A stretch of 64,000 nucleotides of DNA from an uncultured candidatus Brocadiaceae bacterium (GCA_964448935.1 CAYVBE010000001.1:9422-73421); one strand, 5' to 3'; positions 26,439-56,140 are shown, counted from the stretch's first letter. The notes: generated by a model not told the origin, from the letters alone. A program made the numbers and translations.

Positions 26439-26440
26439 GC

Positions 26441-36481: not shown

Positions 36482-39400
36482 ATGATGCATAAGCAAGGCA
36501 GGAGGGCGAGTTCCTGTTTCCTTTCCGTTCTCATCGGTCTGTTTGTGTTCCTTCTGGCGCAGGGAGGGCCTTCATTCTCCGCCTATGTGGAGCGCCCCAA
36601 TCCCAGGCCTTCTTCGGCGATAGCCCTTTTTGGCGATCATAGCCGAGAATTCGAGTGGTACGATACCAACAACCCCCCAGACACCGAATACCGAGTTGGT
36701 GTGAGTGAGTTGGGCGGAGGATCGGGAGTCTGGGGTTTTTACAAGATCAGCCAGACGAAGTCAACGCCGGCCGGGGAGACCGATGGACCTTTCACGGCGA
36801 ACTGCCAGAATTTCTTGATTGGAATTTCGAGGGAATGGCCCTGGCAGAGCCCTGACCTTCCGGGTGACCCGAGGGTGGTGCCGGAGGGAGAGCCCGATCC
36901 CGACGGTGAGGACTTCTACACGGGCATGTTGCCGAACTTCACTTATGCCTGGCAGGTTCAGACGAGAGCGCCGGGAGGAGACTGGGAGGAGGGTCGCCAG
37001 TGGGTGGTTCATACCCCGATAGCGAAGCCCGGAATGAATTTTGATCCATCTCCTCACGGTGCTCTCAGCGTGGGCGTGTATCCGCGTTTTGTGTGGAGTG
37101 AGCATCCGCATCTGCCGGACTTTCCCCAGGCGAAAGTCCTGCTGGTGGATCTGGACGAGGGTGACCCTAATTATAGCAAAGGTTGGGTTGATAACGATGG
37201 CAATATCAACGAGGATAGGGTTGTAAAGACCTACGCCCCCAATGACGGGGATGCGCCTGCTATTGACAAGATCCGAGAGTTCTGGCACTTCGACGAGAAC
37301 TGGCAGCGCCTGTTGCCGAATCGCAACTACGCATGGCGGATAGTCTATTGCGACGACGAGGGGAATGCTTTGTTCGACGACAGGGAGCAGCCGGGTGAGG
37401 ACCCGGAAGACCCTCCCGAAGATCCGAACGACCAGAAGGATGCCGGAGAGCCTTACCTGTGGGCAGACGGCGGTGGGGACACCGCGGATGGCTGGCAATT
37501 CAGGACTGTCGGAGAGATTACCAGTGCGGAGTTGAACAGCCCAAACACGAGATCGCTGATAATCTATTGGCAGAGCATGTACGGTACACTGGACCCGGAC
37601 CCGTGGGAGGGGGATTTCACCTTCGCGAGCGTGGCCGAAGATATTGAGTACATTCATGAGCAGATCCACGATCCTGCCATTTCAACGGCCATCGTAGGGA
37701 CACAAGAGGTGACCGCGTCCTACGGAGGGCTGCACAACGATGATGCCAGACGTGCGAACTGTACCGATCAGGCGCCCTGGCCGGACGAAATAACAGGGTT
37801 CGAAGGTTGGTACACGATGGGGCGAAGCGCTCGGAACAATGCGGGAATGGACCCGGGGCCCACCCACGTGCGCGGGACGCAAGACCGCTACAGGGAATGG
37901 ACAGCACGGGGCATACGGACGCTGTTGCAGGACACGACCAACAAAACGGGCTTTGGCGGTATCAGTGACCGTGCGTATGCGGAGCACCTGGAGCAGGTGA
38001 CTCTCCTGGGTGACGCGGACCATGTTGCGCCAAGCTTCTATCACCATTACCAGATTGGGTCGGCCCACAAGTGGGTGGGAACGGATTTCTTCTACTCCAC
38101 TCAGAACGACACGTCCGCTGTGGAGCTACACCCCGCCTTCCAAGTTAGCCGAATTCCCTTGCAGCAGAAGAGCGAAGACAATTACCGCACCTATGAGGCT
38201 TCTTTTGCTGACCCGCGAACTACGGTCGGTCGGGCTTACGCGGATCCAGAACCTGTTGTCGAGAAAATCTGGGATTTTTCCGCCATCCTGAGTGAAAGCC
38301 ACACGGGAAATCCGGCGGCCAAGTCAGACGCTTATCAGGACTGGTTCGGCCGTGCGGTGGTTGTGGCAGGAGGGACGAATCTCTGGGAATGGTTCCAGTT
38401 TTTTCCCGCATTTGTGCAGAACCTGCTCAGTGGTCAGGTTGCTGCTGTTGGCGGACCACGTGATACATTCGCCGGTCTTAAAGTCAGGCAATACAACATG
38501 TGGGGAGCTGGCGAAGAAGCGCTTAGCCCTGCCAACGTGCTACGGCATCTGACCAAACCGGAGGCCGATGCTGTGCCCGGTTTTGTCTACTTGCTTGCTC
38601 ACGGCCAGGACTGGCAGGATCTTGGTGATCAGACAGTGCTCGATCCCTTCGGCCAGGTTATCGAAGACAATGACTTCGACCGAACCTGGGATGCTCCTCA
38701 CGGGAGGCGTCCTTTGCTCATATCGGCTGCTGGCCAAAACAATCGGTTCGACACCCATCTATGGGGTTCCAATGAGCCCTGGACGTCTCTGGGAGAGGCC
38801 GCATGTCTGGCGCGAGGTGGGCCTATTGGAATCATTGGTTTTGCAAGCGCGGATTACTGGGAGTCGGCCGAACACAGCAAAACGTATCCAGACGGTGGAA
38901 CAACCAGCCGTAGTTTCCGCAGCAGCGGTGTGGACGACATCGAAGGACATGTCTGGCCAGACATAGACCAGGGCCAGGTGTCACTTGCGGCTGCCAGCGA
39001 TCCGGCTTCGCCACTGCGCGGCAAGATTGAACTGATAAAGCTCATAGCCGAGCGATATCAGAGTAGCACAAACCCGGGTATCGGGGACGTTCTCAACAAC
39101 GCTCTTGCAGAATATGTGGAAGCGCACGCCACTGAGCTTGAAAACGCTGACGACCAGTCTGTGGTTACAACTGTCTTTGGCGCTTGCTTGTTAGGCGATT
39201 CGGCGCTTTCGCTGCCCCCACGTCAACGACCCGACTTGGATAAAGCCCGGCCAGTAATCACGGATGAGAACCTCCGCTCTGTTGCTTCACCGAGTGGATA
39301 CGATGCGACTCCGGGTTATAATTCAGCAGGTATGCCAGTGCATGTCATCGCACGGTGGGATCCGGATACCGAAACTAACCCTGGCACGCCAGTAGAACTG

Positions 39401-42179: not shown

Positions 42180-43178
42180 ATGTTCGGCAGACGCAGGGCA
42201 CTTCTGAGGCGACTGCTGACCGCGGCCTCCATACTGCTGGCCGTTGGCACGGGCGGGGCTGCCTACCTGGCCTTCTTCCGCGCATCCGACACTACGCAAC
42301 TCACCCGACCATCGGCCGATTCGGGAATGAAGTCCCGGCAGTCGGCCGATGCACCGTCCGAGGACCGCGACCTGTCCGTGCTGTGGGAGGGGCGCGACGC
42401 GCAGAAGTCCGTCGTCCCCCCGCCGATGGGGGGAGCCCTGGATGGTGAGGCGGAACGTGAGCGGGTGCCCTTCAAGCTGCGTGGGGTTATCTACTCCGGC
42501 GCGGGGGATTCCGTGGCCTTCGTCGAGGTAGGAGACCAACTGCGGCTGCTCGGGCCGGACTCCGAGCTGCAGGGCTGGAAGGTAGCCGCCATCCATCCTC
42601 GGTCCATGGTGCTCAAGCGGGACGACGCCGAGTTCAGCATCTCCATCGAGAGCCTGTCTGTGACCGAACGGCCCGTGGCCGACCTGACCGCGGGCGACGG
42701 GGCGGCGGACACTGAGGCAACCGAAGACGCGGCCAATGTGGAGAGGAGCGTGGTGACCGCAGGAACTGACTCCGAGGGGGTTGCCGACATCCGGGAAACC
42801 GCCGAGGTAAGCAGTCGGGAACGGGAGTACTCACCGCCGCCTTTGCAGGGGGCGGAGGCGCGGGTGCGCGTGCCAAAAGACCTTGTCGAGAAGGTGCGGG
42901 AGGACCCGCGCAGCGTCGAGTACGGCGTGCGCTATAGCTGGCAGCTCAGCCCGAACGGGAAGATAGCCGGCTACAGCATAGACAAGGTCGAGCCCGGCTC
43001 GCTGGCCGCCCGCTACGGCCTGGCCCCGGGGGACCGCGTGCTGGCCGTTAACGGCGTCCCGCTGGACACTCCGACCCGCGCGCTGGAACTCTACCGGCGT
43101 TACCGCAATTCCGATTCCGCCAGGGTTACCATCAACCGCCACGGGGAAACCAAAGACGTGCTCTTCTACGTGCGGTAG
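42180..43178 (+). CDS. gspC: GspC-like protein (N-terminal TM anchor, central Ala/Glu-rich region, C-terminal PDZ domain)
   Basis: MFGRRRALLRRLLTAASILLAVGTGGAAYLAFF is the TM helix. The C-terminal ...GYSIDKVEPGSLAARYGLAPGDRVLAVNGVPLDTPTRALELYRRYRNSDSARVTI is a PDZ fold. It starts 5 bp after the giant gene stop and faces the T2SS cluster. Confidence 0.55.
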   Translation: MFGRRRALLRRLLTAASILLAVGTGGAAYLAFFRASDTTQLTRPSADSGMKSRQSADAPSEDRDLSVLWEGRDAQKSVVPPPMGGALDGEAERERVPFKLRGVIYSGAGDSVAFVEVGDQLRLLGPDSELQGWKVAAIHPRSMVLKRDDAEFSISIESLSVTERPVADLTAGDGAADTEATEDAANVERSVVTAGTDSEGVADIRETAEVSSREREYSPPPLQGAEARVRVPKDLVEKVREDPRSVEYGVRYSWQLSPNGKIAGYSIDKVEPGSLAARYGLAPGDRVLAVNGVPLDTPTRALELYRRYRNSDSARVTINRHGETKDVLFYVR

Positions 43179-43183
43179 AACGG

Positions 43184-43205
43184 CCTCAGCCGCCCCCGGC
43201 TGAGG
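43184..43205 (+). terminator. hairpin directly 3' of the gspC-like stop
   Basis: cctcagcc-gccccc-ggctgagg is a perfect 8-bp stem starting 6 nt after the TAG. No U-tract follows. Confidence 0.45.
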
Positions 43206-43695
43206 TACGGGCGGTTCGTGCAGCGCGCACGGTTGATGTGTAGCGCAGCCACCCGCGGCGGCGAAAACGGATGCATGCGGAAGCCGCGGTCGGGATCGTT
43301 TCGCCTGAAAGGCGTAAACATATCAGCCCAGGGCAGAGCCCGCAGGGCGTCGCCCTGGGAACCGTGGCCGTTCCAATTGGTAGCCCTGACAGGGCGGAAC
43401 CCGGCTCTTCAATCCTCCCGTCCCTGGTGGTGAAGACGAAGGGCGGGAACGGGCACGGATAATGACGGACGCGTGTTGGCCTACTGATGTGCCGCCCTTT
43501 CAGGGCTCGATTTTCCTTCTGCGTTTCTACCCAGGGCTGCTAAAGCAGCTGGAAGAACGCTCGGCGTTCTTCATGGGACCGAGTGGCACATGAATGCCCT
43601 TCGGTCCCCGCTGCGCCCTTCGGGCTCTGCCCCGGGCTTTTATATCGCGCCCTTTCAGGGCGCCATTTACGAACGTTCTCGGTTGGTCAGGCTAA

Positions 43696-43949
43696 CCCGG
43701 ATATTTCACGAGAGTTTTCCGTCCAGCGGACGTTTTTGCCCTCATGCGGCGCCCTCCGCGCTCGCCTGTCCTCGACGTGCCTTATGGCACGCCTGCGGTA
43801 GCTCGCTTGTGCGGGCTTGCCTGAGAGCAAAACCGTCGCCCTGGTGCGTACACAGGGTGTTGCTTGTGGCTGGCCGGTTTTTTTGCTGTAAGATGCGTTC
43901 CTTTAGACAGTTGCGTGCGGTCCCGAAAAACTCTCGTGAAATATCCGGG
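43696..43949. mobile_element. MITE-like non-autonomous element: 254 bp bounded by 23-bp perfect terminal inverted repeats and flanked by CTAA direct repeats
   Basis: Left end cccggatatttcacgagagtttt (43696-43718) is the exact reverse complement of the right end aaaactctcgtgaaatatccggg (43927-43949). CTAA occurs immediately outside both ends (43692-95 and 43950-53), which fits the YTAR 4-bp target duplication typical of IS5-family transposition. The interior has no credible ORF and contains a T7 run. Confidence 0.55.
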
Positions 43950-44077
43950 CTAAACGCCTACGCCCGAACTCGGGGGACCACCGGGCCAGGCTGCGACCCT
44001 TCTCGGTTGACCACGCTGCACGCCTGAGAAGCATCCTTCCCGGTTTGCGCGGTCCGCGCAAGCGCTCGGTGCCGGCC

Positions 44078-44752
44078 CTACTCCTGCACGGCCTCATCGG
44101 GCAGCTTTGGGCGCGGGTCCACGGTGCGGTCTGCCAGGGGCATGGCGATGCACGTGGGGTGCGGCGGGTCGGCCTCGGGGTGCAGGGCCAGCTCCATCCG
44201 CACGGCTATTGGGGGCTTGTTGAGCGACCACTGCCGGCGCCACTCCGAGCCGTCGTAGCAGTCCACCAGCACGAAGGCCACCTCGTCCACCAGGCGCTGC
44301 TCCGCCGCGTGGCGCCAGTCCGGGCTGGAGCCCGGCTCGTAGGGCGTCTGCTGGCGCAGAAGCTCGTAGCCTTCCGCCTCCTCGTCGCGCGGGCGCAGGA
44401 GGTATCGGACGCGCTGCACGTCGGGCGGGGCATCCGAATGGGGCAGGGCGGACAGGGTCGTCAGTTCAAGGACCGTCCCGCCGTCCGTGGGAAACTCGGG
44501 CGGCACCACCACCGGCGGGAGTTGCTCGTCGGGAATCGGCACGAGGGCCTCCACGTCCCACCGCAGAATGCGCGCCACGCCGTAGCCCAGGCGTGCACGG
44601 CGCAGCGTCTGCCGGGAGCGCTGCATACCGCGGACCGTCAGCCGAAGAACGCCCGAGACGGTTACCATGAGCAGGGCGGTGATCGCCAGCGCACAGATGA
44701 CCTCCATGAGCGTGAAACGCCAGCGGGGCGCACCGTGGTGGGAGGCGTTCAC
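44078..44752 (-). CDS. gspJ: type II secretion minor pseudopilin, GspJ-like
   Basis: N-terminal prepilin-type segment APRWRFTLMEVICALAITALLMV (Glu+5 present, Gly-1 replaced by Arg). It is 224 aa and the last gene of the pseudopilin run. Confidence 0.6.
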   Translation of the reverse strand: MNASHHGAPRWRFTLMEVICALAITALLMVTVSGVLRLTVRGMQRSRQTLRRARLGYGVARILRWDVEALVPIPDEQLPPVVVPPEFPTDGGTVLELTTLSALPHSDAPPDVQRVRYLLRPRDEEAEGYELLRQQTPYEPGSSPDWRHAAEQRLVDEVAFVLVDCYDGSEWRRQWSLNKPPIAVRMELALHPEADPPHPTCIAMPLADRTVDPRPKLPDEAVQE

Positions 44753-45192
44753 GGGCTCTCCTCCTCCGAGGAGCGCTGCAGCAGCCAGACGGTGGCCCGC
44801 ACCTGTTCCGCAGCGCGCCGGTCTTCAACCGCTTCGCCGGGCGGGGGGGAGACGCTGACGGTGAAGGCACTGAGTCCCGACGGCGCCCCGTGGGGCGGGT
44901 CTTCTTCCGCGATGGACCAGGTGTAGCCCTCGGCATCCGGAAAGGGGCCGGTGCCCGGCTGTGCTATGCCGGCCTTCAGGTCCGCCACGCGGCCCTGGCA
45001 GAGCCGGACGGCGGTGAGGATGCGGCCTGCCCGGCCGGTGGCTTGCACAGCCCGCGCGCGGGCGACGAGCAGCCCGGCGCAGACGAGGCCCAGTATGGCC
45101 ACCGCGGCGGCGACCTCCACCAGCGTGAAGCCCGAGCGCCGTGCCGAGTCGCTACAGCTCCGATGCGGTTGTGCGTTCATAGCTCGGCTCAC
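44749..45192 (-). CDS. gspI: type II secretion minor pseudopilin, GspI-like
   Basis: ...RRSGFTLVEVAAAVAILGLV is a prepilin cleavage/methylation motif. It is 147 aa and has an ATGA overlap with the gspJ-like gene. Confidence 0.65.
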   Translation of the reverse strand: MSRAMNAQPHRSCSDSARRSGFTLVEVAAAVAILGLVCAGLLVARARAVQATGRAGRILTAVRLCQGRVADLKAGIAQPGTGPFPDAEGYTWSIAEEDPPHGAPSGLSAFTVSVSPPPGEAVEDRRAAEQVRATVWLLQRSSEEESP

Positions 45193-45655
45193 CCGTGAGG
45201 GGGCTGAATCGTATGCGAATCACGGAATATTCGCCGGTCCCCAGCAGCACTTCGTGGTCCGTCACCGTGCCGTCCGGATAGGCGAAACAGGCGGCCACCT
45301 CCTGCTGGACCGTGTTGAAGCCGAATTTGACCCATTCGAACCGCACGCCGGCGGGCAGTTTGTGGAAGGCCTGCGCCTCCTCGTCCACCTCTACCCAGAA
45401 TTGCCCTGCGGGCACGTCGTAGAGGATGCGGGCACGGTCTCCCGACAGTGCGGCGGCATTGCGTGCCCACTGGAGCGTTGTGGCCACCTGGTGGGCGGCT
45501 GCGCGGAGGCGCCAACGGGGCAGGCGGTTGAGCCTGGGCACCATCAGCGTGAGCACCAGGGCGAGCACGGCCAGCGTGACCGTCAGCTCCAGAACGGTGA
45601 AGCCGCCGTCACTCGCCGCCCTGCGCGTGGAGTTCCCAGCTATTGATGTCGGCAT
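45152..45655 (-). CDS. gspH: type II secretion pseudopilin, GspH-like
   Basis: ...SDGGFTVLELTVTLAVLALVLTLMV is a prepilin motif. The start was chosen at ATG 45655. The longer ORF to 45895 has no support. The chosen start would overlap gspG by 47 bp, so the true start may be further downstream. Confidence 0.6.
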   Translation of the reverse strand: MPTSIAGNSTRRAASDGGFTVLELTVTLAVLALVLTLMVPRLNRLPRWRLRAAAHQVATTLQWARNAAALSGDRARILYDVPAGQFWVEVDEEAQAFHKLPAGVRFEWVKFGFNTVQQEVAACFAYPDGTVTDHEVLLGTGEYSVIRIRFSPLTGEPSYERTTASEL

Positions 45656-46079
45656 CGGGACCTTCGCCTCCCTCCGTGCCGTCGCGTCCGTAGGAGATGA
45701 TGTCGAACTTGCCTTGCGCGCCGGGGTAGATGTAGTCGTATTCGTTGCCCCAGGGGTCGCGCGGGACGGCTTCCAGGTATCCGCCCTCGGGCCAGTCGGT
45801 GACGCGCTCGTCCTCCGGCGGGGTGACCAGGGCCTCCAGCCCCTGCTGCGTGGAGGGGTAGAAGTTATTGTCCTGGTAGAACAACTCCAGGGCATCCTTC
45901 AGCTCCTGTATCTGGATGCGGGCGATGCGGGTCTTCGCGCGTTCGAGCTGCCCGCTGACCACGGTGACCACGATCCCGGCGATGAGGCCGAGTATGAGCA
46001 CGACGGTCATGACCTCCAGCAGCGTCAGGCCCTCCCGCCGCCACAGGCTCAGGCGTCCGGTGTCTTCTTTTCTTCTCAT
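45609..46079 (-). CDS. gspG: type II secretion major pseudopilin GspG
   Basis: ...[24 protein letters not shown] plus the GspG signature [41 protein letters not shown]. Confidence 0.92.
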   Translation of the reverse strand: [156 protein letters not shown]

Positions 46080-46102
46080 TAAAACTGCTCCGGTTTACGG
46101 TG

Positions 46103-47311
46103 TCAGATGTTGCTCAGTTCCAGAATCGTCATCATAAGCGACAGGGCGATGAACCCCACCACGGCGGCCATAATCAGCACCAGCACGGGCTCCAGGACCG
46201 TCAGCAGCCGCCGTGAGGCGATTTCCACCTCCAGGTCGTAGGACTCCGAGACGTGTTCGAGCACTTCTTCCAGGTTTCCGCTGCGCTCTCCGACGGCCAC
46301 CATGTAGCCCACCATGGGCGGAAACAGCCGGCTCTCGCGCATCTGCGAGGACATGTCCTTGCCCTCCACCACGGCCTGTCGTATCTGGTCTATCTCCCGG
46401 CGCAGTATCTCGTTGGGCGTCAGCGAGGCCAGCGTCTCCAGCGCCTCCAGCGCGGGCACACCGGTGCGCAGCAGCGTGGAGAAGGACATGCTGAAGCGGC
46501 CCAGCAGGCTCTTCTTCACCAGCTTTCCGATGAGCGGGATGCGCAGCACCAGCCGGTCCAGGAAGATTCGGCCCCGTTCGGTGCGCCGCGCCCAGGCCAG
46601 AGCCAGGAAGAGGAGCGCCGCGAGCGGCAGCGCCAGCCAGATGTAAGTGCGCACGAATCCGCTGGCCGCGAAAAGCATGGACGAAGTGATGGGCAGCCCG
46701 CCCTGATGCTGTGAGAGCAACGGCTGCAGCATGGGCACCACGACGGCCGAGAGGAAGATGATGAGCGCCACGGCCATGACGACGAGGATGGAGGGGTAGA
46801 TCAGGGCGGTGGCCACTTGTGAGCGCAGCATGCGTCGGCGCTCCAAAAAATCCGCCAGCCGCCGGAACACCACGTCCATCATGCCGCTCTTCTCGGCGGA
46901 GGTTACCATCTCGATGTAGGCGCGATCGAAGAAGCGGGGATAGTTCCCGAGCGCTTCGGCCAGGGAGAGTCCGGAATTGACCGCCTCGCGCGCCTCCAGC
47001 AGGGCGCGGGAGAGGCCCTTGTGCTCCACCTGCCGGCTCAGCACGTCCAGGGCCTCGGCAATGGGCACACCGCTGGCCAGAAGCACCGCGAACTGGCGCG
47101 TGAAGATGGTGACGTGCTGCGCCGCCCGCGCGCCGGCGCCGGGCAGCACGGCGGGCAGGCCGCCGCCTCCGCTCTCGGCGGGCTCGACCTTTTGGGGGAA
47201 CAGCTCCATGGAGCGCAACTGCCGGCGGGCGTCCATGGGGTTGTCCGCCACCAACATGCCGCGCACCACGTCGCCGGATTCGTTGACTGCCTTGTAGCGG
47301 AAGCTGGCCAT
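46103..47311 (-). CDS. gspF: type II secretion inner-membrane platform protein GspF
   Basis: FRYKAVNESGDVVRG..., two GspF/PilC repeats (...TRQFAVLLASGVPIAEALDVL... and ...FSTLLRTGVPALEALETLA...). The start is trimmed to the ATG at 47311 (MASFRYKA), 2 nt after the gspE stop. Confidence 0.92.
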   Translation of the reverse strand: MASFRYKAVNESGDVVRGMLVADNPMDARRQLRSMELFPQKVEPAESGGGGLPAVLPGAGARAAQHVTIFTRQFAVLLASGVPIAEALDVLSRQVEHKGLSRALLEAREAVNSGLSLAEALGNYPRFFDRAYIEMVTSAEKSGMMDVVFRRLADFLERRRMLRSQVATALIYPSILVVMAVALIIFLSAVVVPMLQPLLSQHQGGLPITSSMLFAASGFVRTYIWLALPLAALLFLALAWARRTERGRIFLDRLVLRIPLIGKLVKKSLLGRFSMSFSTLLRTGVPALEALETLASLTPNEILRREIDQIRQAVVEGKDMSSQMRESRLFPPMVGYMVAVGERSGNLEEVLEHVSESYDLEVEIASRRLLTVLEPVLVLIMAAVVGFIALSLMMTILELSNI

Positions 47312-47313
47312 GG

Positions 47314-49080
47314 TCAGGAGGAATCCCGCTGAGTCACACGCAGCACCTCTTCCACCGTTGTCACGCCGGCCATGGCCTTCTGGGCGCCGTCTTCGCGGAG
47401 GACCTTCACGCGGTCGGCCACCACCTTCTGGCGTATCTCGCTGGAGGAGGCGCGGCGGTTGATCAGGCGCTGGCACTGGTCGTCTATGGGCAGCAGCTCG
47501 AAGATGCCGATTCGCCCGCGGTAGCCGGTGCCCAGGCACGCGTCGCAGCCATCGCCGCGCCGGAAAGTGGCGTCGGCCGCCTGCTCCGGCGTGAGGCCCA
47601 GCAGGTCAAGCTGCCCCTGCGAGACCTCGGCGGGGCGCGCGCAGTCCGGGCAGATGCGCCGCACCAGCCGCTGCGCCAGCACTGCCAGCAGCGCGGAGGA
47701 GATCAGGAACGGCTCCACCCCCAGGTCCAGCAGGCGTGCGATGGCGCCCGCCGCGTCGTTGGTGTGCAGGGTGCTGAACATCAAGTGTCCGGTCAGCGAG
47801 CTCTGCACGGCCATCGAGGCGGTCTCGCCATCGCGAATCTCGCCGATCATGATGATGTCCGGGTCCTGTCGCACGATGGAGCGCAGCATGGAGCCGAAGG
47901 TCACGTTCTTGCGCGCCTGCACCTGTATCTGGCTCACGCCGTCCAGCTTGTATTCCACCGGGTCCTCGATGGTGATGATGTTCATTTCGGGGGAGTTGAT
48001 CTCCATCAGCGATGCGTAGAGCGTGGTGCTCTTGCCGCTGCCGGTGGGCCCGGTGACCAGGATCATGCCGTGGGAGTAGCGGATGAGTTCTTTGAAGGTG
48101 GCCAGGTTCTCCCGATCCAGGCCGAGTTCTTCGAGGGTCAGCAGCTTCTCCTGCTTGTCCAGCAGCCGCAGGACCGCGCGCTCGCCATCGCTGGTGGGCA
48201 CCACGGACATGCGGACGTCAATCTCCCGGTCGGCGTATCGGAACGATGCCCGCCCGTCCTGCGGCGCCCGGCGCTCGGCGATGTCCATCTTGCCCAGCAC
48301 CTTGATGCGCGACATGATGCCGTCGCGGGCGGAGCGCGGCAGGTCCAGGATGTCGTGCAGGATGCCGTCCGTGCGGAAGCGCACGCGCAGGCGGTCGCCC
48401 ATGGGCTGGAAGTGGATGTCGGTGCTGCCGGTGCGGACCGCCTGGGCGATGAGCAGGGAGACGAGTTTCACCACGGGAGCCTTGCGCATCAGCTCGCCGA
48501 AGTCGGTCACCCGCTCGACTTGCGCCACGCTCTCGGCCAGCTCCTCGTCGGTCAACTCCCCGGCGGCGCTTTCCAGATATTCCGGCCGCTGCCGCACGGA
48601 CCTGTCCACGCAGTCCGCCACCTCGGAGGCGGGGGCCAGGCGGCAGGATACCGGCACGCGGAACAGCCCGCCCATCTCGCCGATTATCTGTCCGATGTCG
48701 GGGCCGGGCGCCAGGGCCAGCTCCAGTCGCTCGTCCGTCAGGGCGGTGGCGCAGACCCCTTCGCGTCGGGCGTACTCCGGCGGCACGCGCTCGAAGAAGC
48801 CCTCTGGCACGACGCAGCCCGCCAGGCTCTCCTCGCAGGGCATGCCCAGGTAGCGGGCCAGCGCGGGCAGCAGGTCCTCCTCCGGGATGCCGCCTTCTTC
48901 CATAATGATGGTGACGGCGGGGTGCCAGTCCTTGCGCATCTGCTCGCGCAGCCGCTCCGCCTCGGCCGGCGTGATGACCTCCTCGGTCAGCAGCGCGTCT
49001 ATGAGGGTGGCGTCTCTGGCGGTTGTGCTGGAAATGGCTTGATATCCCTTCCGGTTATTCCTCGGTCTTGTTCTCGTCAC
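47314..49080 (-). CDS. gspE: type II secretion ATPase GspE
   Basis: GSPII_E N-domain. Walker A LVTGPTGSGKSTTL. Asp box, His box, and C-terminal tetracysteine CPDC...CDAC... zinc motif. Confidence 0.93.
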   Translation of the reverse strand: MTRTRPRNNRKGYQAISSTTARDATLIDALLTEEVITPAEAERLREQMRKDWHPAVTIIMEEGGIPEEDLLPALARYLGMPCEESLAGCVVPEGFFERVPPEYARREGVCATALTDERLELALAPGPDIGQIIGEMGGLFRVPVSCRLAPASEVADCVDRSVRQRPEYLESAAGELTDEELAESVAQVERVTDFGELMRKAPVVKLVSLLIAQAVRTGSTDIHFQPMGDRLRVRFRTDGILHDILDLPRSARDGIMSRIKVLGKMDIAERRAPQDGRASFRYADREIDVRMSVVPTSDGERAVLRLLDKQEKLLTLEELGLDRENLATFKELIRYSHGMILVTGPTGSGKSTTLYASLMEINSPEMNIITIEDPVEYKLDGVSQIQVQARKNVTFGSMLRSIVRQDPDIIMIGEIRDGETASMAVQSSLTGHLMFSTLHTNDAAGAIARLLDLGVEPFLISSALLAVLAQRLVRRICPDCARPAEVSQGQLDLLGLTPEQAADATFRRGDGCDACLGTGYRGRIGIFELLPIDDQCQRLINRRASSSEIRQKVVADRVKVLREDGAQKAMAGVTTVEEVLRVTQRDSS

Positions 49081-51010
49081 GGCCCTCGGGTGTCGGCACG
49101 GCTTCGGAGGGCAGCATGGCTCCCTTTTCCTCCGCTTTGTCCGCCAGTTCCTGACGGCGCCGGCGTGCTTCGGCAGTCATGGTCTCCGCCGTTCTGTGCA
49201 CGGTCGGTGTGATGAAGATGCAGAGGTGCCGTTCCTCATCGGTCTCGACCGTGCGCCGGAACAGGGCGCCCAGGATGGGAATGCGACCCAGGATGGGGAT
49301 GGCGCGGACCGTCTTGGACTTGGTGGTGCGGGTCAGGCCCCCGAAGACCACCGTGTTGCCGTCCGGCACAGTGACTTCGGTCTCGGCCGTCCGCTCGGTC
49401 TTGTTGGTCAGTCTGATCCCCTCCGAGGTGGTGGTGCTGGGCAGGAACTGGTCTACTTCGGTAAGCACCTTCAGCCGCACGGTGCCCTCGTCGTTGATGT
49501 GAGGGGTGATCTCCAGGTTGATGTTGGCCTCGTGGAAGCCGCCGCTGGTGATCTCCCGCGTTCCGGCCTCCGGGGAGAGGATGCTCTTGGCGAACTCCCG
49601 CTTCTCGGCGATTGTGACGGAGGCAGCCTTGTTGTCCACCGTTGTGATACGCGGGCCGGCCACGAAGGAGATGCCCTCGTCCTTCTGCGAAGCCCGGACC
49701 AGAGCGGCTATCTTGGTGGCCTCGTCCTTGAATATACCGGCCGTCAGTCCGCCCTCCGTCGGGGGTATGGGGACTCGGCCTGCCGTGGTGAGTTCGGACA
49801 GGCCGAAGGTGGTGCCGCCGAAGCCCCGAGGGTCGTCACTCGGTCCGTCTATGGAGTTCAGCTCGATTCCGATGTCCATCAGCCGGTTGGTACTGATTTC
49901 GATCAGCACCGCCTCGATCTCCACCTGAGCCCTGGGCCTGTCCAGGTCTTCCAGCAGGGGCAGCAGTTCCTGGTAGCGCGGCTGCGTGGCGATGAGGATC
50001 AGCGCGCTGTTGGCCGCGTCCGCGATGATCTCCAGGGGCTCGCGCGCGGCGCCGCGTACCTCGCCCTCGGGGTTGCTGGCGTTCAGGACCGCGTCCAGCG
50101 TCTGTTTCAGGTCGTCCACGTCGCGGTTCAGCACGTTGTAGATGTGGTACTGCCGCGCGGATTCGTCCGGCTTCACGTCGAAGGTCTCGATGTACTTCAC
50201 GATGCGGGGTATGTCCTGCGGGTCGCCCAGGAGCACCAGGGAGTTGCGCGGGCGGTTCAGGGTGATGGAGAACTGCTCCAGCCGCTTCTTCAGCGCCGGG
50301 CTGGCCTGGCTCTTCAGGCTGTTCAGGTAGTCGGTGGCCACCGTGTGCAGGGTCTCCACGGAGCTCTGCTGTGCCTGGTAGACCCGGTGGGTTAGCTCGC
50401 CGTCGCTGCGATCGAGCTGACGGATGAGCGCGCGCATGGCGGACACGTTGACGCCGTGATCGGTGATGACGAGCTGGTTGAGGTCCGGATAGGGCTGGAT
50501 CTTCCCTGCGGCCGACTTCAGGGGGGTCAGGACGCCGGTGAGGGCCTGGGCGTCGGCGTTCTTCAGCTCCACGGTCACGGTGCGGATGGCGTCGCTCTGC
50601 AGACCCGCTGCGGCCTCTTCGCCCACGGGCAGTCCGTCCGCCTTGCCGGACGGGGCGATCTCTATGTAGCCGCCGCGGTCCAGCACGGTGTAGCCGGCCT
50701 TGCGCAGCACGCCGCTGAAGACGCCCATGGCCTTCTCACGGGAGACCTGCACCCCGGCGCCGCTGACCACGTCCACCGGGGCCTCGCCCGGAAAGCGCTC
50801 GGGCAGCAGGACGGGCTTGCCGGTCTGCTGGCTCAGAAACTCGATCACCGAACTCAACGTCACCCCGGAGAGCGTGATCTGGTATCCCTCTTCGCCTTCC
50901 GCGGGCTGCGCGGTGTCCGGCGGCCCGTTTTCCTCCGCCGAGTGGACGCGGAAGGGCGCATGCATCAGGGCCAGAAGTGCCAGGAAGACGAGCGGACCGG
51001 TCTTTCTCAT
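49055..51010 (-). CDS. gspD: type II secretion outer-membrane secretin GspD
   Basis: Signal peptide, N0/N1-type domains, and secretin core ...VQVEIEAVLIEISTN...VVFGGL...VRAIPILGRIPILGALFR. Confidence 0.9.
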   Translation of the reverse strand: MRKTGPLVFLALLALMHAPFRVHSAEENGPPDTAQPAEGEEGYQITLSGVTLSSVIEFLSQQTGKPVLLPERFPGEAPVDVVSGAGVQVSREKAMGVFSGVLRKAGYTVLDRGGYIEIAPSGKADGLPVGEEAAAGLQSDAIRTVTVELKNADAQALTGVLTPLKSAAGKIQPYPDLNQLVITDHGVNVSAMRALIRQLDRSDGELTHRVYQAQQSSVETLHTVATDYLNSLKSQASPALKKRLEQFSITLNRPRNSLVLLGDPQDIPRIVKYIETFDVKPDESARQYHIYNVLNRDVDDLKQTLDAVLNASNPEGEVRGAAREPLEIIADAANSALILIATQPRYQELLPLLEDLDRPRAQVEIEAVLIEISTNRLMDIGIELNSIDGPSDDPRGFGGTTFGLSELTTAGRVPIPPTEGGLTAGIFKDEATKIAALVRASQKDEGISFVAGPRITTVDNKAASVTIAEKREFAKSILSPEAGTREITSGGFHEANINLEITPHINDEGTVRLKVLTEVDQFLPSTTTSEGIRLTNKTERTAETEVTVPDGNTVVFGGLTRTTKSKTVRAIPILGRIPILGALFRRTVETDEERHLCIFITPTVHRTAETMTAEARRRRQELADKAEEKGAMLPSEAVPTPEGRDENKTEE

Positions 51011-51933
51011 GATTGTTCCTCCTCTATGGCGCGGCTCACATAAAGCACGCTGACGGTGGCCTCCTCCCGCCGGACGAACGCCGTCAAAGCGGTCACCATG
51101 CCCGGATGCGATCCCCGCACCCGCACCGTGAAGTACCGGCTGGCCACGTCCAGCGCGGGCACAAGTTGCCGCACCAACTGCGGCGCGTCCAGCATGGTCA
51201 GAAATGCCTCCAAATCTTCCCGCGTCTCAAACGGCTGCTCCTCCCGGCGCTTCAGCAGCCGGGCGGTCACCTGGTCGTCGCTCCACAGGGAGTTCAGCAC
51301 CTCCCGCGGCGCGGTGTTGACGTTGACCCGCAGCGGGTGCGACGTCAGCAGTCGCAGCAGCGACGGCTTGTCCGATCCTTCCACAAACAGGTCCGTCGTG
51401 ACCACGGGCGCCCGCAGCACCTCGGAGGCCCGCAGCACGGGCTCCCGTGCTGCCACCCATTGCCGGAGGGCCCGGTAATCCTGGTCCCCGCCGCCGGCCT
51501 GCAGCACGGCCCGGTACAGCGCAGGGCGCAGGTCGGGGTAGACGCGTGAGTCCCGAGGGTTGCGGGCCGCACGGTTGACGTTCAGCAGGCGGTCTTCGTC
51601 CCATATCCGGAAAACGCACGTCACCCCGCCGATCTCGATCGAATGCTCGGGCTCCGCCCAGAGTTCATCCAGCGAGTCGAATTCGTTCTCCTCCGCGTCC
51701 TCCTTCAGCATTGCCAGAGCGTACTGCAATGCCGACTCCACCGCGCGCCCGCGCCGGAAGCCGTCGCGCGCATTCAGCGCGGTTCGACGGCTGACGCCGG
51801 CAGCATAGCTGAGCGCGTAGCCCACCAGGGCCACCACGGCCAGCACCAGCACGGTCATGATCAGCACCAGGCCGCCCCTACCGCCCGACGGACGGCGACG
51901 CTGCCCGGGCCGAAAGGGTAATCTCTGCATCAA
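51007..51933 (-). CDS. gspK: type II secretion minor pseudopilin GspK-like
   Basis: N-terminal hydrophobic GGLVLIMTVLVLAVVALV, and the central ...LRVNVNTAPREVLNSL helix-hairpin-helix-like segment characteristic of GspK. Confidence 0.7.
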   Translation of the reverse strand: MMQRLPFRPGQRRRPSGGRGGLVLIMTVLVLAVVALVGYALSYAAGVSRRTALNARDGFRRGRAVESALQYALAMLKEDAEENEFDSLDELWAEPEHSIEIGGVTCVFRIWDEDRLLNVNRAARNPRDSRVYPDLRPALYRAVLQAGGGDQDYRALRQWVAAREPVLRASEVLRAPVVTTDLFVEGSDKPSLLRLLTSHPLRVNVNTAPREVLNSLWSDDQVTARLLKRREEQPFETREDLEAFLTMLDAPQLVRQLVPALDVASRYFTVRVRGSHPGMVTALTAFVRREEATVSVLYVSRAIEEEQS

Positions 51934-52411
51934 TCAGTTGCGGCACTTCCTCGTTCGGGGTTATGCGCAGCTTCGTGGTCCGCACCGCCGGGTCCAGTCC
52001 TTCGGTGGCCTGCAGGAACCTCACCAGGGCCTTATGGCTGAGGCCGACCATATCCAGTTCCACCGTCCGCTCCAAAACGCCGTCCTCGGCGGGTCCCGAG
52101 CTGGCCTCCGGGGAGCCGTCAATCCTCTCGCGCACGTTCTCCCGCGCTGCGATCCGGGTGACGGCCCGGATGTCGAACGCCTCCGGGTCCTGCAGGGTCT
52201 GGTTGGCGCGGGCGGCGCGCTCGGTCAATTCCTCGTACTCCGTCGCCATGTTTTGGATCTCGCGGAGCTGCCCGCGGGCTCTCTGCTCCTGGGCGCGCAG
52301 GCGGCTCAGCCTCACCCACAGGGCTCCCTCCGCCGCCAGGCACACGACCAGCAGGGCGATCAGCGCCGCCGGCAGCCGGTGTTTTCGTGCCCATGCAAGC
52401 ATCGGAGTCAC
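51878..52411 (-). CDS. gspM: GspM/PilO-like bitopic inner-membrane assembly protein
   Basis: Single N-terminal TM (LPAALIALLVVCLAAEGAL) followed by a coiled-coil and periplasmic domain. Its position between the gspL-like gene and gspK also fits. Confidence 0.55.
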   Translation of the reverse strand: MTPMLAWARKHRLPAALIALLVVCLAAEGALWVRLSRLRAQEQRARGQLREIQNMATEYEELTERAARANQTLQDPEAFDIRAVTRIAARENVRERIDGSPEASSGPAEDGVLERTVELDMVGLSHKALVRFLQATEGLDPAVRTTKLRITPNEEVPQLIDAEITLSARAASPSVGR

Positions 52412-53790
52412 CTGTATTTCAGCGTCATGTCCACACGAACTCGGCCGTCCTGGAGTATCGCGGCCCCCGTGTCCCCGCTGCGCCGGAATCCCGGCGCCGA
52501 GTTCAGGATGCGCTCCAGGTCCACCTCCTGCGGTGCGACGGCCTTCAGCCGGACCCGCTGCTGGTTTATGTCCAGCAGCTCGAAGTCCACGTCCGCCTGA
52601 TTGAGGGCGGACGCCAGGTCATGCCAGCGCTGCAGGCAGGAGACGGTCATCGTCTCTTCAGCCGCCAGCGCGTCGCGCCGCGCTTGCTCGACCGCCGCGT
52701 TGAGCCGGGCATAGGTTGTTACCTCGGGGCCGACCCGGCTGAGCGCCGCGCGCCGGCTTTCCTCCAGGGTCTCAATCCGCCGGCCGGCGTCGAGCATCTG
52801 TCGCACCGTGTAAACGCCGACCAGGCAGACGATCAGAACCAGCAGGGCCAGCGCGACGGCTGCCAGGCGCTCGACCTGCCGGGCGAATGCCTGATGCGCC
52901 AGCTCGCCGCGCCGCAGGTTGACGGCCGTCTCCTTCTCCTTCGCCGCCACCCGTGCCATGCGCCGGGGCACCCCCGGGGCGCCGTCGGCCGGCATCTCTT
53001 CGGCGCGTTCCACCGCCATGCCCAGGGATTCCTGCAGCGGCGCGGCCAGGTCGTCCGTCGAGTTCGAGCGGGTCAGAACCACCCGGTCGGCTTCTTCGCC
53101 GCCATAGGTCAGTCGCGCGGAGCGAAGGGCCAGGCGCGTCCTGTCACATATCTCCCGGACGCCGTCTCCCGCCGCGCGAGCGGCGCCCAGCCACTGGACC
53201 TGGCACGTCAGCGGCCGGCCGTCCCGCACCAGGACGGCCTCGGAATGATCCCCGTCCAGTCGCAGCAGCCACGACTGGCCGGGCTGCGCGTCCCACAGCG
53301 GCTGCGTGGCCGCCACCAGGGCCGGCTGCACCACGGATGGGTCCACGCCCGCCGCCTGAAAGGCGTCCAGCAGGGACCGGATGCGCTCCCGCGGGCAGGC
53401 CGACACCAGCATCCTGGACCCCTCCGCGCCCCACGGCACGATCGGGCCCAAGGGCTCCACCACATACTCCTCGATGGCCGCGGGCAGGCGGCCTTCCAGT
53501 GAGTAGTGCAACGTCTTTTCCACCCGCGACCGGGAGCGGAAAGGGAAACTCACGACCCGGTAAAGGCACCACGCGGAGGGCACGGCCACCGCGACGGTGT
53601 GCCGCCCTCGGCCCACTTCGTCCAGCAGCCGGCCGAGTGGCTCCGACAGGCGCCCGCCGGCCTCGGACGGGTCGCCCAGCGGAGGCGTAACGGGCACTTC
53701 CACCTCCCACTGGGGCTCCCGGTTCCTGCCGAACCGCCCGTAGGCAGCGGCGCGTATCGCGCCCGCCCGTATTTCGATCCCGATGATCAT
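52408..53790 (-). CDS. gspL: GspL-like protein (actin-like cytoplasmic domain, TM helix, periplasmic domain; PilM/PilN-like fusion)
   Basis: N-terminal MIIGIEIRAGAIRAAAY... is an actin/PilM-like fold. Internal TM LAAVALALLVLIVCLVGVY. It is the first gene after the 110-bp AT-richer promoter gap (53791-53900). The start was trimmed to the ATG at 53790. Confidence 0.6.
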   Translation of the reverse strand: MIIGIEIRAGAIRAAAYGRFGRNREPQWEVEVPVTPPLGDPSEAGGRLSEPLGRLLDEVGRGRHTVAVAVPSAWCLYRVVSFPFRSRSRVEKTLHYSLEGRLPAAIEEYVVEPLGPIVPWGAEGSRMLVSACPRERIRSLLDAFQAAGVDPSVVQPALVAATQPLWDAQPGQSWLLRLDGDHSEAVLVRDGRPLTCQVQWLGAARAAGDGVREICDRTRLALRSARLTYGGEEADRVVLTRSNSTDDLAAPLQESLGMAVERAEEMPADGAPGVPRRMARVAAKEKETAVNLRRGELAHQAFARQVERLAAVALALLVLIVCLVGVYTVRQMLDAGRRIETLEESRRAALSRVGPEVTTYARLNAAVEQARRDALAAEETMTVSCLQRWHDLASALNQADVDFELLDINQQRVRLKAVAPQEVDLERILNSAPGFRRSGDTGAAILQDGRVRVDMTLKYR

Positions 53791-53900
53791 CTTGTCCCAG
53801 CCGGCCCTGTTGTCCCTGTTATCTGCATGTAGAACAATAACATACGATTGCCCGCGCCGCAACCATCCGTTCGGCGATTGCGGGCCGCTGCGCACACCGG

Positions 53901-55520
53901 TCAGGGGGCGTTCAGCCGCTGGTGGCGCAATGCGCGCGACACCGGCCCCAGCGGCACCGTAACGGCCGCGTGGACGCCTTCCGCCGACGACACGCGGACG
54001 GCGGCGGTCACGCCGCGCGGCACCGGCGCAATGGCCTGCGCAGGGACGCCGGCCAGCGCGAACCACCGCTCCAGACCCTCCGGCGCGACGTAGACCAGTG
54101 CCTGAGGCCGCTCGGGCATGCCCTCGATGGAGGCGTTGAATCGCGCCTCGTCCCGCAGCGAAAAACGCCCGCTGTCCCCGAGCGCCCGTATCTGGCGGAC
54201 GCGTCTCAGGGACTCTGCGCCCACCAGCAGCGTGGTGCGTTCTTGGCCCGCATCCAGGGCGGCCTTCGCATCCTGGCCCAGCAGCCCGCCGAAGAGGGCG
54301 GCCCAGTTATCGTGCGGCACCACGTCCGCCGTGCGCACGCCGGACATGGTCCGGTCATCCGATTCTTTCGGTTCCAGCGTCAGAGGCAGGGGACGCGCGG
54401 ACGCCGGCGTTTTCGCCAGCGCCTCCCAGAGCCGCGCAGGCCGGCCGGGGTTGCTGCCTGTAGATTGCAGCAGCAACTGGAGGCGCCGGCCGTCCCCGGG
54501 CCGGGGCAGGGCAGCCAGCACCTCGGCCGCCGGCTCCTCCGGCGCCTCGCTGTCTCCCAGAACCTGCCTCAGGCGGTTCAGCGGAGCCCTCAGCAGTTGG
54601 CGACCCGCCCGGAATCGGTGCAGCAGTGCGATGATGGCGTCGTCGGGACAGCGGTGCAGTGCGTCCAGGGAGCCGCGGGGCTGCAGCCCCAAAAGCACGG
54701 ACAGCAGCGACCCCTGCAGGGGAGCCGCGCGGACGCCCAACAGGGCGCGCTCGTCGGTCAGGTCAATCCACATCTCGGCGCGGTCCACCTGGCGGGCGAT
54801 CAGGAAAGCCCTGTCGAGCTGCGCCTGGAACTCGGCCGTCTCTCCGGCGGTGGCTTCGGGCACGAAAGGCCGGTGCAGCGTCGCCTCCATCCGTTCCTTC
54901 ATAAGCTGTATCTGACGTTCCACGTCGGCGTCGAAGACCTGCAGGAGCCGTCGGACATCCGCGCGCACGGAGACCTGCCCGCGCCGCGGCCCGGAGAGGG
55001 CCGATCTCTCCACCGCTGCCCAGAATTCTCCCGGAGCGGCGTCGGGGTTGCGGGTGGCGGTGACCAGCGTTCCGCGTTCGCAGACCAGGGCATGACTTCC
55101 GGCCAGCGCTTCGCGCAGCCGGGCGGCGTCGGTCGTTCGGAATCGGAACACCCACGGATCGGCGTGCGTCGCAGGCGCACGGTAGAAGAACTCAACGGGT
55201 TGGGACAGGTCCAGGTACGTGGCGTCCGGCAGGCCCATGTGCGCGGCCAGGGCCTGGGCCAGGTCCGCCGCCTCCGTCCGGCCGTCCGCGGCCCGCAGCG
55301 GGCGGGCAAGCCGTTGCAGAAGATCGGCCGGGTCGGCGATCCTGCCCGCCAGCAGGCATTGCGAGGGGCCGGGCGGGTCGTCTGCGGTCGCCTGTTGCCC
55401 GGGGGTGGGCTGCGCCGCGGCAGCCGACAGCAGCAGGCAGGCGGCGGCCGCCGCAACACGGTAGAACGACCGTCGTCTCCGGGTCCACAGACCGAGCATC
55501 ATGGGCTTCAGGGGGATCAT
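53901..55520 (-). CDS. hypothetical exported protein (possible twin-arginine signal)
   Basis: MIPLKPMMLGLWTRRRRSFYRVAAAAACLLLSAAAAQP leader. Ala/Arg/Leu-rich with no recognisable catalytic motifs. It lies upstream of the T2SS operon on the same strand. Confidence 0.5.
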   Translation of the reverse strand: MIPLKPMMLGLWTRRRRSFYRVAAAAACLLLSAAAAQPTPGQQATADDPPGPSQCLLAGRIADPADLLQRLARPLRAADGRTEAADLAQALAAHMGLPDATYLDLSQPVEFFYRAPATHADPWVFRFRTTDAARLREALAGSHALVCERGTLVTATRNPDAAPGEFWAAVERSALSGPRRGQVSVRADVRRLLQVFDADVERQIQLMKERMEATLHRPFVPEATAGETAEFQAQLDRAFLIARQVDRAEMWIDLTDERALLGVRAAPLQGSLLSVLLGLQPRGSLDALHRCPDDAIIALLHRFRAGRQLLRAPLNRLRQVLGDSEAPEEPAAEVLAALPRPGDGRRLQLLLQSTGSNPGRPARLWEALAKTPASARPLPLTLEPKESDDRTMSGVRTADVVPHDNWAALFGGLLGQDAKAALDAGQERTTLLVGAESLRRVRQIRALGDSGRFSLRDEARFNASIEGMPERPQALVYVAPEGLERWFALAGVPAQAIAPVPRGVTAAVRVSSAEGVHAAVTVPLGPVSRALRHQRLNAP

Positions 55521-55714
55521 GGGAGAACGCCGCACAACTTTGACACGAACATTATAGCCGTACTGCCCCCCAAAGGCCAACACGTGCCCGCCGCAGTCGG
55601 GACGGGCAGCGGCTGAAGTTGCAGTGGGGGGCGGTCCGCGGTACAATGCTCTCAGCCGGCAAACGGGCGCCCCGGCGGGGCTTTGGCACTCTTTGAGGAA
55701 GCGATGGTGACGCA

Positions 55715-56101
55715 GTGAAAAAGGCAGACCTTGAGGAATTCCGCAGGATGTTGGTCGAGCTGAAGCGCAAGCTCGCCAACAACATTGACTACCTGGAGAA
55801 AGGTGCGCTGAAGACCGGCGGGGAGAGCGGGGAGGACCTGTCGGAAGTGACGGCCGAGCACATGGCCGAGCGGGGGAGCGACAATTTCGCCCAGAGCCTC
55901 ATGGTGCGTATCCTCCAGGACTGCGACGCCGAGGTGTGCGACATCAACCGCGCCCTGCAGAGAATTGACGAGGGCACGTACGGCCGGTGCGAGAACTGCG
56001 ACGGGCAGATCGGGGAGAGGCGGCTGAAGGCCCTGCCGTTCGCCAGGTTGTGCATCGAGTGCAAACACGAGCAGGAGCGCCTGCCTGCGGCCGAGGAATA
56101 G
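55715..56101 (+). CDS. DksA/TraR-family C4 zinc-finger protein
   Basis: ...CDINRALQRIDEGTYGRCENCDGQIGERRLKALPFARLCIECKHEQE is the four-Cys zinc finger of DksA/TraR. GTG start. Confidence 0.8.
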   Translation: MKKADLEEFRRMLVELKRKLANNIDYLEKGALKTGGESGEDLSEVTAEHMAERGSDNFAQSLMVRILQDCDAEVCDINRALQRIDEGTYGRCENCDGQIGERRLKALPFARLCIECKHEQERLPAAEE

Positions 56102-56140
56102 GGCAGCCGTTCGCGCGGTTTCGGGCATTCTACCAACCAT

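Follow-up and report, generated by a model that had tools for sequence, protein, structure and literature searches.

A 64,000-nucleotide (nt) stretch of DNA from an uncultured candidatus Brocadiaceae bacterium (GCA_964448935.1 CAYVBE010000001.1:9422-73421), referred to here as the window, has a G+C content of ~66% and contains a locus for a type II secretion system (T2SS). Eleven consecutive genes occupy its minus strand from 55520 to 44078, and the ten from 53790 down belong to T2SS families. The order of these ten, over 44078-53790, is gspL-M-K-D-E-F-G-H-I-J. The remaining gene, here called X, stands in front of gspL. Two more genes approach from the plus strand and converge on the end of gspJ. 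They are gspC and, immediately before it, a gene encoding an exported protein of giant size. A preliminary description of the locus, made from the sequence alone, gave its range as 44078-55520. This also takes in gene X, which that description left unassigned.

Gene content and gene order

The link between the ten genes and type II secretion is clear from Pfam and NCBIfam profile scans, in which a T2SS family is the top match for every one of the proteins. This bears out the earlier view that all core T2SS functions are recognisable on one strand. The motifs quoted in support of that view are also present in the translations. They are the GspG signature (PRDPWGNEYDYIY), the GspK motif RVNVNTAP, the tetracysteine zinc site of GspE (CPDC...CDAC) and the leader of GspJ. 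GspG matches TIGR01710 with 152.4 bits, above the curated cut-off of 88.85, and PF08334 at 1.5e-38. GspE, GspD and GspF have related counterparts in type IV pilus systems, and here the scores can be compared. GspE matches TIGR02533 with 586 bits (4e-176; cut-off 630) and the PilB model with 510. The secretin GspD matches TIGR02517 with 284 bits (1.9e-84; equivalog cut-off 351) and PilQ with 155, and it also contains PF00263, three copies of PF03958 and a weak N0 domain. GspF matches TIGR02120 with 355 bits (7e-106; cut-off 424) and PilC with 297. The T2SS models therefore outscore the pilus models for all three proteins, by 57-130 bits.

GspL matches TIGR01709 at 3e-16 (59.4 bits; cut-off 65), together with PF05134 and PF12693. 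The top match of GspM is T2SS_M_SYNERG (6e-7), with a weak match to PF04612 (1.6e-3). A set of minor pseudopilins is present, each under the curated sequence cut-offs: GspK (NF037980, 1.3e-25), GspH (XpsH, 5e-4, and its position), GspI (TIGR01707, 6e-5) and GspJ (PF11612, 9e-6). For GspJ there is additional evidence from structure. A model built from a 30-sequence alignment has a mean predicted local distance difference test score (pLDDT) of 89.6, and its 17 significant top matches in the PDB are all XcpW, EpsJ or GspJ (E 9e-7 to 2e-5). The identity of this protein, described earlier as GspJ-like, is thus upheld by a fold that matches these proteins exclusively. GspC, on the other strand, matches GspC_delta at 4e-22 (79 bits; cut-off 150), TIGR01713 at 1e-13 (51.6 bits) and PDZ_6 at 1e-9.

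One component is missing. No match to Peptidase_A24, the family of the prepilin peptidase GspO/PilD, was found among the open reading frames (ORFs) of the window that were scanned, in agreement with the earlier observation that the window has no gspO. Many T2SSs rely on a prepilin peptidase encoded elsewhere. Judged by sequence, then, the T2SS of this locus is genuine but divergent rather than a textbook case, and it is complete apart from the prepilin peptidase.

Is the gene order peculiar to this one genome? A genome-collection scan with GspD returned one close relative (L001, 54-85% protein identity), which is labelled an uncultured Brocadiaceae metagenome-assembled genome. Its synteny is identical, from gene X through gspJ to the convergent gspC and the giant gene. 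The next-best secretin matches are Verrucomicrobiota loci with other gene orders, and a metagenome scan with a GspD alignment gave no confirmed match. The complete L-M-K-D-E-F-G-H-I-J order of L001 recurs in three further related loci (L008, L011 and L014) among the best GspJ matches whose surroundings were retrieved, with GspJ identity down to ~30%. L015 keeps the same order, but its gspL position holds only a 192-aa product, and the E-F-G-H-I-J end is also found in L016 and L017. In L013, whose GspJ is a more distant homologue, the genes follow the usual F-G-H-I-J-K-...-secretin order. The order is therefore a character of a clade and not a one-off. This clade is so far known only from uncultured bacteria, which are probably of the Planctomycetes-Verrucomicrobia-Chlamydiae (PVC)/Planctomycetota type. 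L008 also encodes a second secretin (18621-20690), a TPR-containing protein of 1,140 aa that runs off the locus; it lies at a distance of ~8 kb from the T2SS and is presumably part of another secretion or pilus system.

Table 1. Positions of the features of the T2SS locus and its surroundings in the window; a slash marks the pseudopilin cleavage site, here and in the text.
Feature	Position	Strand	Basis or remark
Sigma-70-like promoter match TTGGCC-18-TATAAT, 10/12	55551..55580	-	Consensus match; ~30 nt upstream of gene X, between it and the divergent dksA/traR-like gene
Gene X, 539 aa, N-terminal signal peptide	53901..55520	-	Immediately upstream of gspL
Conserved block, candidate internal promoter/operator for gspL-J	53817..53862	-	TTGCGG-17-TATTGT (53862-53834) overlapping inverted repeat TGTTAT-N14-ATAACA (53842-53817)
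gspL, 460 aa: PilM-like cytoplasmic domain, transmembrane segment, GspL_C periplasmic domain	52408..53790	-	TIGR01709, PF05134, PF12693
gspM, ~174-177 aa, start GTG 52411 or ATG 52402	51878..52411	-	T2SS_M_SYNERG, PF04612, conserved position
gspK, 307 aa, minor pseudopilin without Glu5 (GGRGG/LVLIMTV)	51007..51930	-	NF037980; RVNVNTAP
gspD secretin, 651 aa: N0, three Secretin_N, secretin domain	49055..51010	-	TIGR02517
gspE ATPase, CPDC...CDAC zinc site	47314..49080	-	TIGR02533; longest ORF from GTG 49080, probable start ATT 49035
gspF inner-membrane platform protein, 402 aa	46103..47311	-	TIGR02120
gspG major pseudopilin, 156 aa, leader RREG/LTLLEV	45609..46079	-	TIGR01710
gspH-like minor pseudopilin, leader SDGG/FTVLEL, start ATG 45655	45152..45655	-	XpsH
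gspI-like minor pseudopilin, leader RRSG/FTLVEV, start ATG 45180 or GTG 45192	44749..45180	-	TIGR01707; N_methyl
gspJ minor pseudopilin, 224 aa, Arg at -1 (PRWR/FTLMEV), start GTG 44752	44078..44752	-	PF11612; fold
~900-nt non-coding spacer between convergent gspC and gspJ ends	43179..44077	.	Inverted repeats
gspC, 332 aa: N-terminal transmembrane segment, C-terminal PDZ	42180..43178	+	GspC_delta, TIGR01713, PDZ_6
Giant exported protein, ~1,897 aa from ATG 36482	36482..42175	+	Sec signal peptide, CFI-box-CTERM domain; candidate dedicated cargo/partner

Several neighbouring genes were described earlier as overlapping by 26-56 bp, with non-ATG starts as one option. Two of the overlaps stand and recur in relatives. 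The start of gspK lies ~53 nt inside gspM, as it does in L001, L008, L011 and L014, and the start of gspH lies ~47 nt inside gspG, as in L001 and L008. In addition, the GTG of gspJ overlaps the stop codon of gspI (GTGA). However, the 26-nt overlap between gspD and gspE is doubtful, because the gspE reading frame of L001 has an in-frame stop before the conserved GspE N-terminus and is then without ATG, GTG or TTG for 48 codons. What the window and L001 have in common at gspE is the motif GGA(A/G)GGA-N9-10-ATT-TCC (ATT at 49035-49033 on the minus strand of the window and at 11954-11956 in L001). From this shared motif we infer that gspE probably starts with AUU at 49035, which would remove the overlap with gspD. 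The 26-nt overlap would then probably be an artefact of ORF extension, and the option of a non-ATG start would apply to gspE.

Another aspect of expression concerns the promoter. It had been placed in the AT-richer gap between X and gspL (53791-53900). The sole promoter match in the window that passes the scan threshold is the one upstream of X (55580-55551), and not in this gap. Nevertheless, the gap contains a conserved block, TTGCG(G/C)-17-TATTGT with a variable spacer, which is common to the window and L001 and overlaps TGTTAT-N14-ATAACA. In the equivalent gap of L008, TTGTAA-17-TATAAT comes after a pair of strong terminator hairpins. These features make a promoter for gspL-J in the gap plausible, in which case X would be transcribed separately or additionally. 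The gap of the window also has a weak hairpin at 53866-53844.

Gene X itself occupies the place before gspL not only in the window but also in L001, L008 and L014. It has no Pfam match, only a chance-level NCBIfam match (E 0.05) and just three homologues, and its AlphaFold2 model (pLDDT 45) is unusable. In L011 the position of gene X is taken by a gene for a CPBP intramembrane protease (191-826), directly upstream of gspL. Its best matches are myxosortases (MrtP, 2.8e-25; Mrt_core, 1.1e-24, 86.6 bits against a cut-off of 100). A CPBP gene is absent from the window and from the flanks of L001, L008 and L014. Neither gene X nor the L011 protease figured in the preliminary description. Divergent from gene X, and sharing a 176-nt upstream region with it, are a dksA/traR-type zinc-finger gene and lspA, encoding signal peptidase II (55697-56668, plus strand).

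The GspJ leader and relaxation at position -1

The usual class III leader is short and basic, with Gly at -1 followed by a hydrophobic stretch with Glu5 (PMC6916266). The GspG, GspH, GspI and GspK leaders of the window all end in Gly. The leader of GspJ (MNASHHGAPRWR/FTLMEV) has Arg at -1, in an otherwise intact motif with its hydrophobic stretch, and so departs from the usual class III leader. The Arg had been noticed before, with the caution that it might be a mis-called start or frame. It is not. GTG 44752, 5 nt after GGAGGAGGAG, is the sole start codon upstream of FTLMEV. Five strain variants keep the Arg while -2 varies between Trp, Gln and Arg, and the L001 orthologue, which is 61% identical, reads PARR/FTLLEV. 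The single possible start, the strain variants and L001 together establish that the Arg is genuine and conserved. Two other ways of reading the leader were considered and rejected. Its sole Gly (HHG) might mark another cleavage site, but the leader of L001 is without any Gly. A start at ATG 44707 (MEVICAL..., as in one JGI gene call) fails in L001 too, where the corresponding residue is Leu. The absence of Glu5 from GspK of the window is usual for GspK proteins.

How unusual is the substitution? An exhaustive HMMER scan gave 635 matches to GspJ, where a word-index search had given only two proteins. Among the 141 homologues with a recognisable motif the residue at -1 is Gly in 92, Ala in 42, Ser in four, Cys in one and Arg in two. 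Arg is confined to the window, its strain variants and L001, and is absent from the other 139 homologues sampled. The trend is not limited to GspJ. Ala stands at -1 in GspG of L008, L014 and L017, in GspI of L001, L014 and L017, and in GspH of L016. Position -1 is relaxed across the clade, with Gly predominant, Ala frequent and Ser and Cys also present, and the Arg is the most extreme case. That the relaxation is a trait of the clade had gone unseen.

Perhaps the peptidase of this lineage is simply less particular. Ala and Ser at -1 are best read in this way, as presumably reflecting a tolerant enzyme. Arg is a more extreme case. Strom and Lory reportedly found in 1991 that bulky or charged substitutions at -1 prevent cleavage by PilD in P. 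aeruginosa. The Arg-1 GspJ may be cleaved by a very tolerant enzyme, or it may be uncleaved and tethered to the membrane.

The giant partner of gspC and the question of cargo

The preliminary description held that gspC was split off, elsewhere and convergent. It is convergent with gspJ, but it is not elsewhere: it is adjacent, ~900 nt from the gspJ end. What escaped attention is its neighbour. gspC starts 4 nt past the stop codon of the giant gene, whose product carries a Sec signal peptide and, at its C-terminus, a CFI-box-CTERM domain (41 bits against the NCBIfam NF041770 cut-off of 40). The protein also contains a degenerate C25-peptidase-like region, fn3/Ig repeats and a poly-Gly run. The pairing of a giant gene with a PDZ-encoding gspC, converging on gspJ, is found in six of eight lineages (the window, L001, L008, L012, L014 and L016), with the two genes 2-73 nt apart. 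The giant measures ~1,900-2,170 aa across the clade, and the copies are homologous over ~1,900 aa at 33-35% identity, similar to GspL, GspJ and GspC. All copies have Sec signal peptides. The CFI-box scores 40.7-41.8 bits, just above the cut-off, in the copies scanned (window, L001, L008 and L012), and in those of L014 and L016 visual inspection confirmed the conserved motif of the tail. A Gly-rich or poly-Gly linker followed by the Cys motif CF[IV]AT is kept in all six copies that were read.

An active protease was considered and set aside: the C25 match comes from one member (3.7e-8), and the His and Cys positions are not conserved across the four homologues aligned. A giant profile compared with PDB sequences returned only spurious matches to the poly-Gly linkers of single-chain antibody variable fragments. 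The 103-aa CFI-box tail gave no match in a homologue search, a metagenome scan with an alignment of the tail confirmed nothing, probably swamped by the poly-Gly pattern, and no literature on CFI-box-CTERM was found. The giant gene also differs from its surroundings in base composition (36401-42175, especially 37000-41000). Its G+C content is 55-58% and the G+C content at its third codon positions (GC3) is 0.66, compared with ~66% and a GC3 of 0.8-0.9 for the rest of the window.

The spacer that separates gspC from gspJ (43179-44077) is a peculiarity of the window, since the same junction measures only 10-100 nt in L001, L008, L012 and L014. Its inverted repeats comprise one of 29 nt (93% complementary, 202 nt apart) and an imperfect one of 46 nt, and CGCCCTTTCAGGGC hairpins occur in it repeatedly. 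An Rfam scan of the window gave no match. The spacer may be a small inserted repeat element.

How might these components work together? By homology with characterised Gsp systems, the cargo would be exported to the periplasm via Sec. The zinc-site ATPase GspE, docked on GspL, GspF and GspM, would drive assembly of a short GspG pseudopilus, primed by a tip complex of GspK, GspI and GspJ, possibly with GspH. GspC would connect the platform in the inner membrane with the secretin GspD, which would serve as the exit for the folded cargo. The arrangement of the genes suggests that GspC is co-expressed with the giant and probably recruits it. The reading that is best supported, and that we consider likely, is a T2SS variant specific to this lineage and coupled to the giant as its dedicated cargo. 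The giant is probably that cargo and, again probably, retained at the cell surface.

A number of observations weigh against such a coupling, or against the assignments on which it builds. The cargo assignment is one of guilt by association. L015 and L017 are without the gspC-giant pair beside gspJ and have unrelated genes there, and the genome encodes many other potential substrates for a general T2SS, among them a GH10 protein, a sulfatase and a GH-like protein in the window. The CFI-box does not look like a classical tripartite sorting signal, as inspection by eye of the ~95 residues that follow its Cys shows no evident transmembrane helix and no basic tail. A CPBP neighbour is known from one lineage, L011, and scores below the Mrt_core cut-off. 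GspG is the only protein to pass its NCBIfam equivalog cut-off, so that the T2SS call depends on how the best hits rank, on the architecture and on a single fold match, and the prepilin peptidase was not found in the window. Finally, all data come from metagenome assemblies, and the taxonomic label depends on one record.

What if the machine is not dedicated at all? It might be a general-purpose T2SS for many hydrolases, with the giant no more than a neighbour by synteny or one of its many substrates. Most characterised T2SSs have multiple substrates, and the secreted-enzyme candidates of the window, together with the absence of the pair from two loci of the same T2SS type, fit this explanation. 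However, it leaves unexplained why the giant and gspC stay paired, and so close together, in most lineages across ~30% GspJ identity, and why the divergence of the giant matches that of the variable T2SS components. A general-purpose system is on balance somewhat unlikely, although general secretion and a dedicated cargo are not mutually exclusive. A different emphasis is placed by an explanation in terms of C-terminal-tag surface display, similar to that of MYXO-CTERM and Synerg-CTERM proteins. In this scenario the CFI-box Cys is modified, a CPBP protease of the myxosortase family cuts the tail and the T2SS moves the giant to the outer surface. The invariance of the Cys after its linker agrees with this, as does the myxosortase-family gene that adjoins gspL in L011. 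It also agrees with the best matches of GspC and GspM, which are to T2SS variants of delta and Synergistetes lineages, whose tags depend on or co-occur with T2SS. The tail after the Cys, in which no transmembrane helix or basic end is evident by eye, does not agree with it, nor does the lack of a CPBP gene in the window and in the flanks of L001, L008 and L014, and there is the below-cut-off score in L011 and the absence of CFI-box-CTERM from the literature found. The likeness to T2SS-dependent Cys-CTERM sorting is suggestive but weak, and tag display of this kind appears distinctly improbable.

The T2SS assignment has its own competitor, a type IV pilus or a generic type IV filament machine, which would assemble a fibre on the surface and not secrete proteins. 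The below-cut-off scores of GspE, GspD and GspF, the strong matches to PilB, PilC and PilQ, a weak MshEN match at the GspE N-terminus and a weak PilM match for GspL would be expected of such a machine. Yet it would hardly come with a GspG above its cut-off, the GspK signature, a GspL with fused PilM/N-like parts, GspM, a PDZ-containing GspC and a GspJ fold that matches T2SS tip pseudopilins only. Moreover, PilT, separate PilM/N/O/P, a PilA-type pilin and a PilY1/PilC adhesin are all absent from the locus. A pilus is for these reasons highly improbable, and the earlier choice of a T2SS over a type IV pilus holds. At the other end of the range is an extension of the dedicated-cargo reading that is unlikely. 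The locus could represent an undescribed T2SS subclass of uncultured PVC/Planctomycetota-type bacteria for single-cargo surface display, in which GspC recruits a co-expressed CFI-box protein of ~2,000 aa, the tag is processed by a myxosortase-like enzyme in at least some lineages and the Arg-1 GspJ, uncleaved, forms a membrane-tethered tip or anchor. If true, it would give type II secretion its first natural case of a core pseudopilin that stays unprocessed, and CFI-box-CTERM its first functional context.

Neighbouring genes and comparison with known systems

Elsewhere in the window several gene groups are of separate interest. A gene for an FHA-GAF-SpoIIE (PP2C-type) phosphatase (56755-58497, plus strand) lies within ~3 kb of the T2SS locus. 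L015 has a PocR-GAF-SpoIIE gene (17263-19059) within ~7 kb of its own T2SS, possibly a coincidence. On the plus strand at 10281-22732, a MoxR AAA ATPase, DUF58 and BatA/VWA cluster precedes a pair of very large ORFs (1,069 and 1,544 aa), which are almost without domain matches. The interval 26001-27100 is a patch of low G+C content (58%) and poor coding signal with a Gp49/HigB-like toxin ORF (26438-26833), and may be a small mobile or toxin-antitoxin insertion. Right after fusA, in an rpoC-rpsL-rpsG-fusA region, is a gene for a RACo-type reductive activator of corrinoid proteins (5208-7085, plus strand), a hint of anaerobic corrinoid-dependent metabolism.

T2SS biology rests almost wholly on Proteobacteria. 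A survey of type IV filament systems leaves Planctomycetes and Verrucomicrobia unmentioned and treats the chlamydial system as atypical (PMC6668835). The present locus offers comparative work a complete, conserved PVC-type example with a fixed architecture of its own. The canonical Gsp/Pul/Eps/Xcp systems of Proteobacteria have the same set of components (C, D, E, F, G, H, I, J, K, L and M), the same tetracysteine site in GspE, the same GspG and GspK signatures and the same GspJ fold (EpsJ/XcpW/GspJ). The preliminary description called the gene order inverted relative to the canonical gspC-O operon. This does not hold, as D-E-F-G-H-I-J is collinear with that operon and it is the K-L-M block that has shifted to the front, as L-M-K. 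Here, in contrast to the canonical systems, gspC is on the opposite strand behind the giant gene, gspO is not in the locus, gene X is added upstream, most proteins score below equivalog cut-offs and the -1 position is relaxed to Ala, Ser, Cys or Arg. Split or rearranged T2SS loci are known from elsewhere: in P. aeruginosa xcpPQ is divergent from xcpR-Z, and the xps genes of Xanthomonas have D last.

The relaxed leaders have a precedent in the pneumococcal Com pilins, in which a leader ending in Ala is both natural and processed (PMC8727766). The clade likewise uses Ala often, even in the major pseudopilin of three loci, whereas GspJ of the window, its strain variants and L001 carries Arg. The natural series of Gly, Ala, Ser, Cys and Arg at -1 is a test set for prepilin peptidase specificity, and its Arg member raises the question of whether a tip pseudopilin must be cleaved.

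The presumed cargo can be compared with two kinds of known system. One is the E. coli T2SS-beta, a dedicated T2SS that secretes SslE (PMC5012682, PMC3707838). SslE (YghJ) is likewise a very large Sec-exported protein that is encoded at a T2SS locus and is probably surface-associated, and the pairing of giant and T2SS seems analogous to it in logic. The candidate described here is unrelated to SslE, having a degenerate C25-like region, fn3/Ig repeats and a CFI-box but no M60 domain, and it is paired with gspC on the opposite strand. GspC links cargo and secretin, so a giant that is kept with it suggests a pair of one machine and one cargo in which cargo recognition by GspC could become tractable. 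The other comparison is with the CTERM systems. Cargo with a GlyGly-CTERM or MYXO-CTERM tag requires a T2SS, and for Synerg-CTERM there is a link with a divergent T2SS cassette (preprint 10.1101/2023.06.07.544157). MYXO-CTERM with myxosortase, Synerg-CTERM with MrtS and GlyGly-CTERM with rhombosortase thus resemble the present locus, in which a divergent T2SS with delta- and Synergistetes-like GspC and GspM stands beside a Cys-containing CTERM-family protein and, in L011, a CPBP gene adjoins gspL. The orphan CFI-box-CTERM domain thereby gains its first genomic context. In contrast to these systems, the CFI-box is ~100 aa long and shows by eye no evident transmembrane anchor, the window and most of the related loci have no CPBP gene, and there is one tagged protein here in place of dozens.

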